From Escherichia coli (lineage in GTDB: Bacteria; Pseudomonadota; Gammaproteobacteria; Enterobacterales; Enterobacteriaceae): a stretch of DNA of 64,000 nt. Position numbers: made by a program. Location of the stretch: the NCBI RefSeq assembly GCF_003334765.1, contig NZ_QOWT01000012.1. One strand, given 5' to 3'. Within the stretch, counting starts at the first letter, position 1. Every line of letters begins with the position of its first letter. Below are positions 1 through 6,000 of the stretch, in pieces.

Positions 1-3000
1 CCTGAATATCAGCCAGCATTGGGGCAAGGGCTGGGTTGTCCTTAGCGAAGTTTGCGTACATTGGCTGTACTTTCTCGATAAACGGAGCTTTATCTACCTG
101 GTAGACTTTCACGCCCATTTTATCCAGTTTTGCAAATTCTTGTTTCTCTTCCTCGCTCCACAAGTCTTTCATGTAGCTCATTGATTCTTTAGCTGCTTTT
201 AATATAACTGCCTGATTTTCCTGGCTAAGTTTATCAAACGCAGCATTGCTCATCAGAACCACATCGGGAACCATAGTGTGTTCGTCAAGGCTGAAGGATT
301 TTGCCACTTCACCGTGACGCATGGTAGTCAGCGCCATCACGCTGTTTTCTGCCATATCGACCACACCCTGCTGTAAGGCTGTATACAACTCGCCGTAATC
401 CAGTGGCGTCGGGTTACCGCCCATGACTTTGATCATTTCAACTGCGCCAGGGCTTGGCTGGACACGGACTTTCATGCCTTTCAGATCGTCTGGTTTCAGT
501 ACTGGTTTATTGCCATAGAAACTGCGGGCGCCTCCATCATAAAAAGTCAGCCCGAAATAACCTTTGCTTTTCGTTGAGTCGAGGATTTTTCTCCCGATAT
601 CGCCCTGCATGACCTGATAATAATGATCACGATCGCGGAACAAATAAGGCAGGCTAAATAATTTATAGGAATTTTCAAATGCTTCCATTTCTGCCGCATT
701 GGTTTTTACCAGGGGAATAGCGCCAGAACGAATCAGCTCCATTGTTTCTCGTTGAGTACCCAATGTTCCATTTGGATAAATACGAATAGTAATATCACCG
801 TTAGAGTACTCTTTGCTCTTTTTCGCAAAGAACTCCATCGCTTTATGAACAGGATGAGACTTATCCTGATTATGACTCAGTTTTAATGTCACTGCCCAGG
901 ACTGGCTTGCGGATAACATAAGAACAGCACCGATAATGCCAGCGGATACTTTTATTTTCATAGATGTTCCTTTTCTAATAAATATGGCGGCAGGTGCCGC
1001 CAGTGAATGCGCATCAGTAGCCCAGTGCTCTTGGCAATGCCATACTGATTTGCGGAATATAGGTCACCATTGCCAGCACCAATACCATCACGGCATAGAA
1101 TGGCAGCATAGGTTTGATAATTTTATTAATCGGTAATTTAGATACACTACAACCGACAAATAACACACTGCCTACAGGCGGAGTACAAATACCGATACAC
1201 ATGTTCAGTACCATGACAATACCAAAGTGAATCGGGTCCATGCCCAGTTCGGTGACAACCGGTAAAAATATCGGCGTAAAAATCAGTACCGCCGGTGTCA
1301 TATCCATAAAAGTGCCGATAATCAACAGGATAATATTGATAATAAGCAGGATTATTATTGGGTTGTCAGAAATAGTGTTAAGCAAATCGAGAATCAGGAA
1401 GGGAACGTCAGCGTTTGACATTGCCCATGACATACCCATCGAAGAACCAATTAATAACAAGACAATTGCAGTGGTAATAACGGATTCCAGAAATATTTTA
1501 GGTAAATCTTTAACTGAGATTTCACGATAAAGAACCAGTGCAAGGAAAAGGGTATAAATTACTGCAATTGCGGAGGCCTCTGTCGGGGTAAAAATACCAC
1601 TTAATACACCCCCCATAATTAAAATAATCAGGAAAATACTGGGGATAGCCATCCATATCGCAACGCCAGCCTGGCGTAAAGTCGGGCGTTCTGGCTTTGG
1701 ATAACCGCGACGTACCGCGATAATACCGGCTATTACCATCAGTGCCAGACCCAGCAAAATTCCCGGAACATAACCCGCCAGGAACAGTGCGGCAATAGAA
1801 GTACCACCACTGACCAGTGAATAGACGATTAACGTATTACTTGGTGGAATAAGCAAACCCGTCGGGGCAGAGGCAACGTTAACCGCAGTACTGAATGCCG
1901 GGTCGTAACCCTCTTTAACCTGTTGCGGATGCATGACGCCGCCCATCGCAGCCGCCGAAGCCACGGCTGAACCAGAAATTGCCCCGAACAGCATATTGGC
2001 GAGAATATTACAGTGGGCAAGTGAGCCTGGCAGACGACCGCCGAGAATACGGGCAAAGTTGATTAATCGTCGCGCTATTCCTCCATGGTTCATAATGTTG
2101 CCAGACAAGATAAAAAATGGGATTGCCAACAACGTAAAACTATCTAACCCGGAGGCTAACTTTTGGGAAACCACACTCAATGCTGAGTTGAAATCGAGTT
2201 GTGTGGAAATTGATGCCAGTGTCGATAAACCAATGGCATAAACAATAGGTACACCTAATGCCAACATAAAAAAGAAGGCACCAAATAACACAATAATCGG
2301 TAACCAGTAATCCATAATTTCTCCATTCCTACTATGGTTGGTTGTTGTTTGTTATCTTTAGAGTGGTTGTTTAAGTTCGGTTAAAACCATATCTATGGTG
2401 TATATAATAATAAGTACACCACTAATCGGGATGCTCATATAGATATATCCCATTTGCCAGCCTAAAGCGGGCGAGGTCTGACCTGAATCGAATGTATCCA
2501 TCGTTAATAGCCCACCACCATATACCATAATGATGGTTGCGAAGATAATAACGATAATCTGAATACACAAAAATAAATGACGTCGGGCTTTTCCTTTCAG
2601 CATCATAGGTAGCAGGTCAATCGCCAGATGCCGGTTTTGCCCTGCGGTGTATGCCCCACCAAAAAGTCCAAGACAAATAAAGAGCAAACGGCTGAGTTCA
2701 TCTGTAAAAATACTGGGACTAGTAAATATAAATCGTGCAGCCACCTGCCACGTCACACATGCCACGATGATCGCCAAAATGGTAATGTTCAATGCTGCAA
2801 GCAGAGCATTAATAGATCTAATTATATTTCGCATAGTGATTAACCTTTGCAATATCATTCATCCTGTGGCTGGTAAATTGTCCCATTAAGAAAACCAGGC
2901 CAGTTTTTTTCAAACCAAATACCTCGGATAATAGGAAACTCACGAACAGGTGTTTCTCTGACGTGAAAGATACCGTTGCAATAATGAATAAGTAGTTTAT

Positions 3001-6000
3001 CTTTTTTATCCTCAGTACGCTCTGAACGAAAGCGCCAGGCATCACAAAAACCATTTCGTGTTTGCGGAATAGAATTTCCATCCCTGTCGAGAATAATACG
3101 TGCTCCCCGACTACCACCACCTGCGTCAATATAATGCGTTAATTGCGTTAATACGGCGGCAGAAGTCAGTGCCATATGCCGCCACATAAACAGCTCGGCA
3201 ACTTCACCCACATGTTTGATAGCCAATCCATGCCGTTGGACAAATTCGCTCAATAGCAGGGCATCGCGAGTGGCGCGTCGGACTTTATCGGCATGGCAAA
3301 TAAATCCCGCATGGTCAGACATTCGTGCCTGAATTTTTTCTCTCACAACCGACAACGGCATCCCGGTCCCGTTATCGTGCGCCTGAGTAATGATCTCTCT
3401 TATAGAAGCCAGTGTAGGAGCTACCAGCTGTGCTATATCTCCATCAATATTCCGCTTTTGCGTGCAACCAATAAAACGTGCCAGACGAACAGCAAAAACC
3501 TGCCCGGCATTCAATGCTGCACCACCAGGGCGAGTGACGCCGTGTGTGCCAGCAACTTCCCCCACGGCGAAACAGCCGGGCAGGGAGGTTTGTCCCCAGA
3601 TATCCACTTCAATGCCGCCATTCATATGCTGATTATTCATGGCAAACTGCAAAGGCTGTGTGGTGAGATCGTAACCGTGCATCTTATACAGCGAGATAGA
3701 CAGCGGATTCATTCGTTGCAGCCGTTCGATGGGCGATGGTGCCAGAGCGTCGTTATTTTCCAGATACGCGCGAACGTCGTCGTCCAGTCGATCTAATGAG
3801 AACGGCAGGTCACCCGGCACCGCTTCAGGATTGCGATTGAAATCCATAAATACCTGACGCCCTGATTGCTGCTCTTGCGCTACTGCCATATCTAACAAGC
3901 TGGAGCCAAAATCCATCACCCGAGTGGCGTGGAACGGCCACTGATAGCCTTTACGGAAAATGTTTGAAGCCAGCTCCTGGGTGGTGCGATAGTAATCCGC
4001 GAGGAAGTTATACTCGTTACCCTCAGCATCCACGGAATAGATATACGGGATCACCTGTACATAGGTACCGGATAAATTCCACGGAAACGTGCTACGCGGC
4101 GTGCCTATACCAAACTGGCTTTCGGTCAGATTGGTTAGCGTCAGGCCTTCCTCCAGCGCCAGCCCCAGCGAGCCAAAACATTTGTGTGGGTACACACTGT
4201 CGCGATAAAGCTCGCCAGGCCCTCCTGTTGCCAGTACCACATTGGGCGCAGTCACAATTGCCAGCCCCCAAGGGTTATGGGCGCGATGACCGGTCGCGAG
4301 GATTGCCCCCGCAACACGGTCTTCGCCGTTTTCGTCACGCTGATGCAGCAGTTTAATCACTGTTGCACTGGTCAACACTGGAATGGCGAGGCGCTGTACT
4401 TCTTCCAACAGCACTTTCACCATTAACCTTGAGGTACGCGGCCCACACGAGGTTGCACGCCCGGCTTCGTCATGGTCGGTTTGATAACGAAGAATCGCGC
4501 CATAGCGATCTTCCGGTAATTCCAGACCAAGATATTGCAACCCGCCAAGAGTGTGCAGAGAACCTACCGCTTCGACATAAGCGGTGTCGTGATCCATCGC
4601 CCCACCGCTCGCCAGTGCCTCTGCCAGTTTGGTGAAGTTGTCGCCGTTGCCCGCGGTAGCGGCGGTAAACAGTGTCTGTTTATCGGAACCAGAACATGCC
4701 GACGTCCCCATATATAACCCGGCGGTGGCGATCAGCACATTTTGCTGGCGGCGTTTAAGTTCCACAGCTGCACGCAGCCCGGCTGCACCACTGCCGACTA
4801 CCAGGGCATCTGTTTGCCAGAGTGGGTAATCAACACCGTCTACCGTGACAACCCATGCGGGCTCTGCCTGTGCAAAACCCTTTGGGAAAGTAACGTGCGT
4901 CAGCGCATCAAGGATGGTGTCATCAAGCTGACTCATGCATCCTCCATCGGCGTAAACAGGCTACTTTCCATCAGGCGTGGGTGCTTGATAATTGGACGGA
5001 AAGCCATATACGGCAGAATGTCGCGCTCAATCTCCACACCCGGCGCGATTTCAATTAATTCAACGCCTTCTGCCGTTAACTGGAATACTGCGCGTTCAGT
5101 GATATACAACACTTCCTGACCACTTTGCTGTGCGTAGGCGGCGCTAAAAGTGATTTTTTCCACCTTGGTAACCAGTTTAGGGATTTGACCTGACTGGGCG
5201 ATATGCAAGCCATCTGGTGTTATATCGATCTTGCTGCCTTTAGCGTCGAACGTGCCGCAGAACACCACTTTACGGGCATTTTGCGCAATTTCGAGAAATC
5301 CGCCGGGGCCAATCAGATTGCCATTGAGATGGGAGACGTTGACGTTACCGTACTGATCCATCTCTCCCATGCCGAGGAAGGTGATATCGATCCCTCCGCC
5401 ACTGTAGAACTCAAATTGATCGAGTGATGGAATAATGGCATCGGCGTTGCGGGCGCAGCCGAAAAACGCATCATCCAGCATCATGCCGTTATGTACGCCT
5501 TGCTCGACGCTCAGCCATAAACTTTGGTAAGGAACGCCTTCGCGCAGCGCTACTCCTGGAATGCCGCCGGGAATACCAAAGCCAAAGTTGGTTGAAGCGC
5601 CAGCTACCAGTTCGCGTGCTGCCCGACGGGCAATCAGGCGACGTACCGGATGACTAACCAGTTCAATAGCGTCGTTAGAACTCAGACGGCGATGTTGGCC
5701 GCTGATGGTCAGGTCGTAACCGCCAAGATAGGTTTGTGGTTGTTCGCGGTGTTCAACGATGCCATCAACCAGAATGCCCGGTAATTTGACCCGGCGTGGT
5801 TCAATCGCGCCAGCTTCCAGCACATCGCGTACCTGTACGAACACTTTGCCGCCGCTGTTGTGTGCTGCCAGCGCCATGGAATAGCTATCCATATCAATCG
5901 CTTCTTCTTCAAGGCTGACGTTGCCTCGAGGATCGGCATAAGTGCCACGCAAAATCGCGTAATCCACTTTGAAAGGGCGATAACGAAGTTTGGTTTCACC

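Follow-up and report, generated by a model that had tools for sequence, protein, structure and literature searches.

A flavoprotein of 693 residues, encoded near the beginning of a 64,000-nucleotide stretch of Escherichia coli DNA (RefSeq assembly GCF_003334765.1, contig NZ_QOWT01000012.1; hereafter the window, whose coordinates are used throughout), probably serves the catabolism of a sugar-acid-like compound as a substrate-level oxidoreductase, rather than acting on fumarate, aspartate, urocanate, or steroids. The more specific assignment that we favor, with rather less than even confidence, is that of a stand-alone flavin adenine dinucleotide (FAD) oxidoreductase that belongs, with four other enzymes, to a catabolic operon under TetR control; the operon would break down a polyhydroxylated carboxylate after its import, most likely one resembling a hexuronate or aldonate. 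The protein lies within a known superfamily, and it is a good target for function discovery rather than a categorically new system.

The gene occupies 2855–4936 as a single ATG-to-TGA open reading frame (ORF) of 693 codons, exactly as described in an original prediction made from the sequence alone, and lies on the minus strand, which that prediction had left unstated. An identical coding sequence is annotated in RefSeq (WP_000080339.1, "FAD-dependent oxidoreductase"). The gene is under strong purifying selection, the ratio of nonsynonymous to synonymous substitutions (dN/dS) being 0.05 in comparison with a divergent E. coli allele (dS 0.39) and 0.10 in comparison with Escherichia albertii; because of these ratios and the existence of thousands of homologues, the ORF is not a chance one. 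Its features are as follows.

2855–4936, minus strand: 693-residue FAD-dependent oxidoreductase of the NadB/SdhA/FrdA-like family (ORF, RefSeq coding sequence, Pfam, AlphaFold2 model, dN/dS)
4823–4936, minus strand: N-terminal extension, residues 1–38, a helix and β-hairpin not in FrdA
4757–4801, minus strand: GxGxxG dinucleotide-binding (FAD) motif VVGSGAAGLRAAVEL, residues 46–60, Gly48 and Gly50 being invariant in the family alignment
3677–4111, minus strand: enlarged and divergent capping (substrate) domain, residues 276–420, where HMMER gives no alignment to any PDB flavoprotein
3530–3532, minus strand: codon of Arg469, equivalent to FrdA Arg390 and NadB Arg386 and invariant in the family

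The FAD-binding motif that had been recognized near the N terminus is present, and a Pfam search, proposed together with the original prediction, assigns FAD_binding_2 (residues 43–475, E = 8e-28) as the sole domain, with no second domain found. The AlphaFold2 model (pLDDT 93, pTM 0.94) has NadB, SdhA, and FrdA as its best fold matches by Foldseek, and the predicted fold is the four-domain fold of these enzymes. FrdA and SdhA of E. coli (PDB codes 1kf6, 5vpn, and 1nek) share this architecture with the C-terminal domain included (Foldseek E = 2e-30, TM 0.67/0.79; hhalign probability 99.3% over 531 columns), together with the SRG motif and the equivalent of Arg390, although at an identity of only 18%. 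In a profile-sequence alignment, residues 39–655 match residues 3–567 of E. coli FrdA. Sequence matches in the PDB are weak, the top one being NadB at 5e-9, and the scores against the curated NCBIfam families TfrA, NadB, and SdhA/FrdA fall 4–10 times under the cutoffs (126.5 versus 718 bits for TfrA, 100.7 versus 452.75 for the NadB model TIGR00551, and 80.7 versus 567.3 for the FrdA/SdhA model TIGR01812).

The protein had been described as 100–200 residues longer than typical soluble flavoprotein subunits; this holds for NadB (540 residues; E. coli 1chu/1knr and Salmonella 5kxj), which is ∼150 residues shorter, but not for FrdA (602 residues), where the excess is only ∼90 residues. Nor is the excess a C-terminal extension as had been supposed. 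The extra ∼90 residues sit in residues 1–38 and in the capping domain, which comprises 145 residues compared with 108 in FrdA, and the C terminus is not extended; a fused C-terminal domain is therefore ruled out. Ahead of the GSG motif, FrdA has 11 residues and most members of the family ∼23, whereas the enterobacterial clade has ∼47. Inspection of the sequence revealed no signal peptide at the N terminus. No cysteine is conserved among 45 diverse members of the family, so that an intrinsic iron-sulfur cluster is unlikely.

The active site was compared with that of FrdA position by position. The histidine that binds FAD covalently (FrdA His44) belongs to a two-residue insertion of FrdA that the family does not have; the flavoprotein reads GTSACSGSDKQT at this point, and only 1 of the 45 family members has any histidine in this segment; the histidine whose presence the original prediction had proposed to check is thus absent. 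Of the six FrdA substrate positions (His232, Thr244/Glu245, Arg287, His355, and Arg390), Arg390 alone is kept, as the invariant Arg469. His232 corresponds to invariant Gly276 and His355 to invariant Gln436, which is followed by invariant His437, whereas the proton-shuttle Arg287 corresponds to the gap between invariant Ser345 and Ser346, and Thr244/Glu245, in a low-confidence alignment, to Gln294/Val295. Residues that are invariant across the family in the capping domain comprise Trp286, Asn287, Gln294, Lys329, Tyr331, Trp333, Ser345, Ser346, Asp349, and Arg360, with Asp85-Lys86-Gln87, Tyr151/Thr153/Asp154, and Asn439 elsewhere; we infer that the invariant Trp, Asn, Gln, Asp, Lys, Ser, and Tyr of the capping domain may form a carbohydrate-type pocket. 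From these residues and the lack of a signal peptide, we conclude that the flavoprotein is most likely a soluble, single-subunit enzyme of the cytoplasm with noncovalent FAD and a rebuilt substrate pocket, and that it does not have fumarate, succinate, or aspartate as its substrate.

The top NCBIfam names (TfrA, NadB, and SdhA/FrdA) and the shared fold would suggest a fumarate reductase or L-aspartate oxidase of a divergent, soluble kind. This identity is highly improbable, and is effectively excluded by the residues and scores: at five of the six FrdA positions for substrate binding and catalysis the residue differs, and does so invariantly throughout the family, and the scores lie far below the curated cutoffs. 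In addition, a genuine frdABCD is present in the same genome ∼45 kb away, genes for FrdB, FrdC, and FrdD are missing beside the flavoprotein, and the operon is of a catabolic character, in contrast to the NAD biosynthesis context of NadB. An unlikely, but less remote, alternative is an NadB-like CH-OH (or CH-NH2) dehydrogenase that would convert a 2-hydroxy (or 2-amino) sugar acid to the 2-keto acid in the cytoplasm, as an aldonate 2-dehydrogenase, and pass its electrons to quinone, fumarate, or O2. The fold is that of NadB; however, NadB His351 corresponds to Gln436, the capping domain that carries NadB Arg290 is not alignable by sequence, the region of the FrdA/NadB capping-domain catalytic arginine reads Ser-Ser, and the score of 100 bits against the NadB model compares with a cutoff of 453.

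The original prediction had likened the flavoprotein to stand-alone enoate, urocanate, and 3-ketosteroid enzymes. As a stand-alone, fumarate-reductase-like flavoprotein it does fit this pattern, but kinship to urocanate reductase or to the 3-ketosteroid dehydrogenases (KstD) is not borne out. UrdA (6t85), Fcc3 (1qo8), Osm1 (5glg), and the NADH:acrylate/cinnamate reductases are FAD_binding_2 proteins that reduce a carboxylate-conjugated C=C without iron-sulfur or anchor subunits; the exported or flavocytochrome-type enoate reductases (UrdA, Fcc3, ARD, and Crd) combine an FMN_bind/cytochrome module or a signal peptide with a short core, an arrangement that the flavoprotein does not have. KstD (4c3x and 7p18), Δ4-(5α)-KstD (4at2), and cyclohexanone dehydrogenase (8am3) are stand-alone FAD_binding_2 enzymes that desaturate beside a ketone made by a dehydrogenase. 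Such logic would fit the flavoprotein because of its conserved short-chain dehydrogenase/reductase (SDR) partner, yet the flavoprotein lacks sequence and fold similarity to KstD across the catalytic domain. No TcuA model appeared among the best 25 NCBIfam matches (30 families matched), TcuA not being compared directly, and the operon includes no TcuB-like gene.

The operon lies on the minus strand and is transcribed in the order SDR, TIM-barrel protein, enoyl-CoA hydratase, CoA-transferase, flavoprotein, dctQ, dctM, and dctP, the last three genes encoding a tripartite ATP-independent periplasmic (TRAP) transporter. Its elements are listed below.

9126–9773, plus strand: TetR/AcrR-family regulator, divergent from the operon, with TetR_N and TetR_C_29 (Pfam) in orthologues
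8982–9003, no strand: near-perfect 22-bp palindrome ATCAACCAACCAGATGGTTGAT, lying between the TetR gene and the operon, which diverge here
8122–8913, minus strand: SDR, 263 residues (NCBIfam PRK12745, 417 bits; cutoff, 250)
7270–8112, minus strand: xylose-isomerase-like TIM-barrel protein (AP_endonuc_2), 280 residues
6484–7260, minus strand: crotonase-family enoyl-CoA hydratase, 258 residues, best solved relative 3-hydroxypropionyl-CoA dehydratase
4933–6474, minus strand: fused family-I CoA-transferase, 513 residues, 39% identical to E. coli YdiF
2358–2834, minus strand: TRAP small permease DctQ (RefSeq start, that of the longest ORF being 2858)
1014–2315, minus strand: TRAP large permease DctM
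1–961, minus strand: TRAP periplasmic solute-binding protein DctP, whose final ∼10 nucleotides precede the window start

The start of the flavoprotein gene and the stop of the CoA-transferase gene overlap by 4 nucleotides (ATGA), with GGAGGA located 5 nucleotides upstream of the start, and the two are probably translationally coupled. Overlap and coupling with both neighbors had been proposed; on the side of the permease neither is upheld, as the RefSeq start of DctQ at 2834 leaves a 20-nucleotide gap after the flavoprotein, overlap requiring the longest-ORF start at 2858, and in Klebsiella and Salmonella a transporter of the major facilitator superfamily (MFS) occupies this place. The absence of iron-sulfur and membrane-anchor subunit genes nearby was correctly noted, every ORF within 1–10 kb being otherwise accounted for. 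The general idea that the flavoprotein is tied to CoA metabolism also holds, in that it shares an operon with a CoA-transferase. The palindrome surfaced in a scan for terminator-like sequences and is a plausible candidate for the TetR operator. The nearest structures to the TIM-barrel protein, 3qc0 and 3ju2 (SMc04130; E = 1e-84 for each), are uncharacterized, and its resemblance to IolO, Hyi, and OtnI is weak (E = 1e-6 to 8e-5).

The operon is chromosomal and flanked by rplI and ytfB, and positions 1–9100 of the window are 100% identical in several complete E. coli genomes. At least 80% of this 9.1-kb query is found in 1446 of 5426 complete E. coli genomes (∼27%). K-12 MG1655 is without the operon and has at this site (locus L092, 4426628–4428095) yjfZ (DUF2686) and the pseudogene ytfA, a remnant at the position of the TetR gene beside ytfB; the island is thus a presence/absence polymorphism within E. 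coli. In Klebsiella oxytoca and Salmonella enterica, the module of TetR regulator, SDR, TIM-barrel protein, hydratase, transferase, and flavoprotein is located at the same chromosomal site, but ends with an MFS transporter of the ACS family (DgoT/ExuT-type) in place of the TRAP genes. These replacements, together with the lower GC content of the TRAP genes (40–45% over positions 1–3000, compared with 50–56% for the five enzyme genes at 3000–8500), suggest that the transporter is a swappable cassette. The ulaABCDEF genes for ascorbate utilization, of which UlaE is an AP_endonuc_2 protein, lie just past rpsF-priB-rpsR-rplI, ∼2.3–6 kb beyond the window start; their closeness to the operon is probably coincidental.

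The wider family was defined by a HMMER scan of 1.84 billion cluster representatives, which gave 3309 matches, including 422 clusters (at 50% identity) at E ≤ 1e-30, most of them 640–700 residues in length and aligned across residues 30–689. The 45 diverse members share 72 invariant columns, align from end to end, and carry the motifs GSDKQT, YxTDHD, NLTESQFG, WNLSG, KGYQWPF, QHxNGG, RPGG, and SRG. Matches in AFDB50 superimpose with TM 0.85–0.96, and all are unnamed or bear the name of the superfamily only. The family is large and without a characterized member, and the two findings that could have overturned the original prediction, a well-characterized family that claims the protein and an unrelated fused domain, were not made. 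A genome scan found at least 593 loci with a family flavoprotein, in Enterobacterales, Rhizobium, Devosia, Rhodobacteraceae, Betaproteobacteria, Planctomycetota/Phycisphaerae, Lentisphaerae, Verrucomicrobia, Clostridia, Spirochaetes, and others.

The gene neighborhoods support the assignment to sugar-acid-like catabolism. A census was made by Pfam scan of the 298 ORFs within ∼2 kb of the flavoprotein gene at 74 loci, with the 20 most frequent families reported; the ORFs were called greedily as the longest ones, genes at GC-rich loci may have been missed or mis-called, and the proteins were scanned in batches as artificial "alignments" of unrelated proteins. The most frequent families include Gfo/Idh/MocA (21), SDR (18), GMC oxidoreductase (16), AP_endonuc_2 (15), LacI (15), Oxidored_FMN (14), PfkB (13), and KDPG/KHG aldolase (13; 2-keto-3-deoxy-6-phosphogluconate/4-hydroxy-2-ketoglutarate). 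The top score of the neighboring kinase is to 2-dehydro-3-deoxygluconokinase (KdgK; 250–270 bits against a cutoff of 400), and that of the Gfo/Idh/MocA protein to a levoglucosan-dehydrogenase homologue. There is a statistical association of the family with enzymes of sugars and sugar acids, as well as with transporters of carboxylates, the link to the kinase and aldolase being one of gene neighborhood in other taxa only. A co-occurrence table based on BLAST (10-kb flank) represents a lower bound because the ORF caller can miss or mis-call genes; it missed the transferase and hydratase of Rhizobium, located 11–12 kb upstream.

Two further neighbors were observed in this survey. An FMN protein resembling old yellow enzyme (OYE), with a CxxCxxC (iron-sulfur) motif, adjoins the flavoprotein in 14 of the 74 loci (L007, L009, L010, L085, and others), and a metagenomic protein of 1084 residues (P0150) is a natural fusion of an OYE-like FMN domain with a family flavoprotein; fusion and adjacency point to a two-flavin electron-transfer unit in other phyla. 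Some soluble enoate reductases pair with OYE-like modules, as does this family in other phyla, and no such partner is present in the E. coli operon. An MtnA-like isomerase (IF-2B family), scoring above the curated cutoff for methylthioribose-1-phosphate isomerase, lies ∼1.1 kb from the flavoprotein gene and beside the KDPG aldolase in 5–7 loci (L074, L078, L084, and others, of Planctomycetota/Phycisphaerae).

The transporters accord with the same substrate class. The nearest solved relatives of DctP are a group of TRAP binding proteins (E = 1e-71 to 1e-62), two of which are documented complexes, 4n8y with galacturonate and 4x8r with glucuronate (PMC11668362). The ACS-family transporter of the Klebsiella and Salmonella operons is of the sugar-acid type.

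A minimal module of SDR, flavoprotein, TIM-barrel protein, and transporter, under TetR control, is found in Succinatimonas, where the transporter is a TRAP system, and in Brenneria, where it is a PcaK-like MFS protein; Brenneria and E. coli are 73% identical in the SDR, 71% in the TIM-barrel protein, and 58% in the flavoprotein. Pseudescherichia, Phytobacter, and Mangrovibacter have the minimal module with a Gfo/Idh/MocA protein and an MFS transporter. In Succinatimonas, Brenneria, Pseudescherichia, and Lentisphaeria, no CoA gene accompanies the SDR, flavoprotein, TIM-barrel, and transporter genes, and the CoA-transferase and hydratase are accordingly add-ons. These add-ons recur independently beside the flavoprotein in five lineages. 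In addition to the enterobacterial operons, they are found in a betaproteobacterial cluster (L019) of transferase, hydratase, TRAP, MaoC, acyl-CoA dehydrogenase, electron transfer flavoprotein (ETF), TIM-barrel protein, and flavoprotein; in a Desulfobacterales metagenome-assembled genome (MAG); in a Clostridia MAG, where an SDR and a gene resembling fructuronate reductase accompany two transferases and a hydratase; and in a co-directional operon on a Rhizobium plasmid, which reads transferase, hydratase, aldehyde dehydrogenase, sugar ABC transporter, two successive GMC genes, Gfo/Idh/MocA, flavoprotein, sugar kinase, and class-I aldolase. A CoA-dependent deoxyribonate cluster of Klebsiella michiganensis was considered as a counterpart and rejected, since no flavoprotein accompanies its CoA synthetase, thiolase, MFS transporters, and glycerate kinase.

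The distribution of the CoA genes also bears on the idea that the flavoprotein stands in for an acyl-CoA dehydrogenase in a β-oxidation-like cycle, in which the transferase would form the thioester, the flavoprotein would introduce the α-β double bond, the hydratase would add water to it, and the SDR would then oxidize the 3-hydroxyl. Next to the flavoprotein the operon indeed has a transferase, a hydratase, and an SDR of the "3-ketoacyl reductase" type; the hydratase is nearest to short-chain enoyl-CoA and 3-hydroxypropionyl-CoA hydratases, and the start-stop overlap with the transferase suggests coupled synthesis. However, homologues at 55–58% identity reside in clusters without any CoA enzyme, the CoA clusters L019 and L079 encode a genuine acyl-CoA dehydrogenase in addition, whether or not ETF is present, the arginine retained by the superfamily binds a free carboxylate in solved relatives, and the operon is without a thiolase. 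Such a role appears decidedly improbable.

For the favored assignment to an imported polyhydroxylated carboxylate, a reaction scheme can be proposed. Arg469 would anchor the carboxylate of the substrate, with hydride transfer between substrate and flavin N5 as in FrdA and NadB. Either a C=C conjugated to a carboxylate or ketone would be formed or reduced, as in FrdA, UrdA, and KstD, or a CH-OH beside the carboxylate would be oxidized, as in NadB; both chemistries are compatible with the fold. The flavin step may belong to an oxidize, dehydrate-or-isomerize, and reduce sequence carried out together with the SDR and the TIM-barrel enzyme, a scheme that we put forward specifically with somewhat more reserve than the assignment itself. 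In the relatives, this sequence would yield a 2-keto-3-deoxy acid that is passed to the KDG-kinase-like kinase (KDG, 2-keto-3-deoxygluconate) and KDPG aldolase. A CoA-thioester branch would be added in Escherichia, Klebsiella, and Salmonella by the hydratase and the YdiF-like transferase.

This branch might serve in one of two ways. The acid could be activated so that the hydratase eliminates its β-hydroxyl, or the transferase and hydratase could dispose of a C3–C4 acid product, an option raised by the nearest solved relative of the hydratase, 3-hydroxypropionyl-CoA dehydratase. In the first case, formation of a uronate thioester would acidify H-5 and allow the crotonase to eliminate the 4-hydroxyl, giving the 4,5-unsaturated/5-keto-4-deoxy intermediate that otherwise comes from polysaccharide lyases, which the TIM-barrel enzyme, as an aldose-ketose isomerase, and the SDR, as a reductase, could turn into KDG. 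This route is a chemically attractive idea.

E. coli YdiF (2ahu) is 39% identical to the CoA-transferase over the full length, both are fused α-β family-I transferases, and the catalytic Glu333 of YdiF corresponds to Glu324. The ydiF gene is found at a different locus, ydiB-aroD-ydiF-ydiO-ydiQRST; in K-12 (L095, 1773789–1784677) it follows ydiB and aroD and precedes ydiO and ydiQRST, which encode an acyl-CoA dehydrogenase and ETF, an arrangement that resembles the betaproteobacterial cluster L019.

Several points weigh against the assignment to a hexuronate- or aldonate-like acid. The substrate and the reaction direction of the flavoprotein are pure inference, and none of the genes of the E. 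coli operon specifies a donor or acceptor of electrons for the flavin. Known routes from uronates to KDG need no flavoprotein, so that a part for it in such a scheme is not dictated by the chemistry, and TetR control and YdiF-like transferases are commoner in hydroaromatic and fatty-acid than in sugar-acid pathways. KduI/KduD- and Uxa/Uxu-type enzymes are not found at a curated score in the operon, the SDR reaching 115 bits against the KduD cutoff of 339. The Brenneria cluster carries, as its transporter, a PcaK-like MFS protein of the aromatic-acid/H+ symporter family (369 bits). The mapping of the capping domain to FrdA is uncertain, in that HMMER aligns none of it and hhalign does so at low confidence. 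Finally, a search of the full-text literature (gene products, protein accessions, yjfZ/ytfA, SMc04130, 7VPF, and hydroaromatic acids) found nothing on the operon or the flavoprotein family.

Some of these points would instead favor shikimate, quinate, or a related hydroaromatic acid as the substrate, on which the flavoprotein would act as a cyclic-enoate reductase or desaturase in a CoA-dependent pathway. The steps would be CoA activation, dehydrations by the hydratase and the TIM-barrel enzyme, and reductions of C=C and C=O that depend on the flavin and the SDR, with a logic like that from shikimate to cyclohexanecarboxyl-CoA or that of gut shikimate reduction. The Brenneria transporter, the TetR control, and the position of the paralogue ydiF adjoining ydiB (quinate/shikimate dehydrogenase) and aroD in K-12 are all consistent with it, and dehydroshikimate dehydratases fall in the AP_endonuc_2 superfamily. 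The shape of shikimate may be close to that of a 4,5-unsaturated uronate, which could reconcile such a substrate with the uronate-like DctP. Gut bacteria use FAD_binding_2 reductases on the shikimate enoate (bioRxiv 10.1101/2022.12.26.521950); these documented shikimate reductases, however, sit in the exported flavocytochrome-type branch and not in that of the flavoprotein. Moreover, the family-wide neighbors are sugar enzymes (KdgK-like kinase, KDPG aldolase, Gfo/Idh/MocA, and LacI), no aromatic or hydroaromatic pathway family is among the 20 most frequent of the census, and in Klebsiella and Salmonella the transporter is a member of the ACS family, which is of the sugar-acid type. A hydroaromatic substrate is therefore considered improbable, although slightly less so than a role in β-oxidation.

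It is conceivable, if doubtful, that the flavoprotein is the founder of a new functional class in the FrdA/NadB superfamily that acts on sugar-acid-like rings or chains, for instance by forming or reducing the 4,5-double bond of a hexuronate-type enoate or by oxidizing an aldonate at C-2, and that it belongs to an undescribed CoA-thioester-dependent route of enterobacteria. If so, Escherichia, Klebsiella, and Salmonella would use CoA thioesters to degrade a hexuronate-like or hydroaromatic acid, and the YdiF-like transferase and crotonase would perform on a monomer the β-elimination that polysaccharide lyases perform on polymers. The operon, present in about one-quarter of the complete E. coli genomes and at the same site in K. 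oxytoca/grimontii and some Salmonella, escaped classical E. coli metabolic genetics because it is absent from K-12. The database labels of the family, "succinate dehydrogenase flavoprotein subunit" and "L-aspartate oxidase," are probably wrong, and identification of the substrate would correct a widespread misannotation, give a textbook enzyme fold a new reaction type, and could bring to light an acid of plant, host, or glycan origin as an accessory nutrient niche that marks gut and environmental lineages of Enterobacteriaceae.

The flavoprotein gene also varies within E. coli itself. The alleles of the window and of locus L011 (10001–12079) differ with a dS of 0.39 and a protein identity of 96.5%, and further clusters labeled as E. 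coli are found in databases at 93 and 88% identity; this divergence, unusually deep for one species, points to exchange with other lineages of Escherichia. In some E. coli records (P0002, of 1078 residues, P0034, and P0086), the CoA-transferase and flavoprotein form a single polypeptide, corresponding to ∼2855–6474 in the window. P0002 follows the transferase until approximately residue 388 and continues in frame from residue 3 of the flavoprotein. A designed fusion was rejected in favor of an in-frame internal deletion that removes the C terminus of the transferase and probably inactivated the operon.

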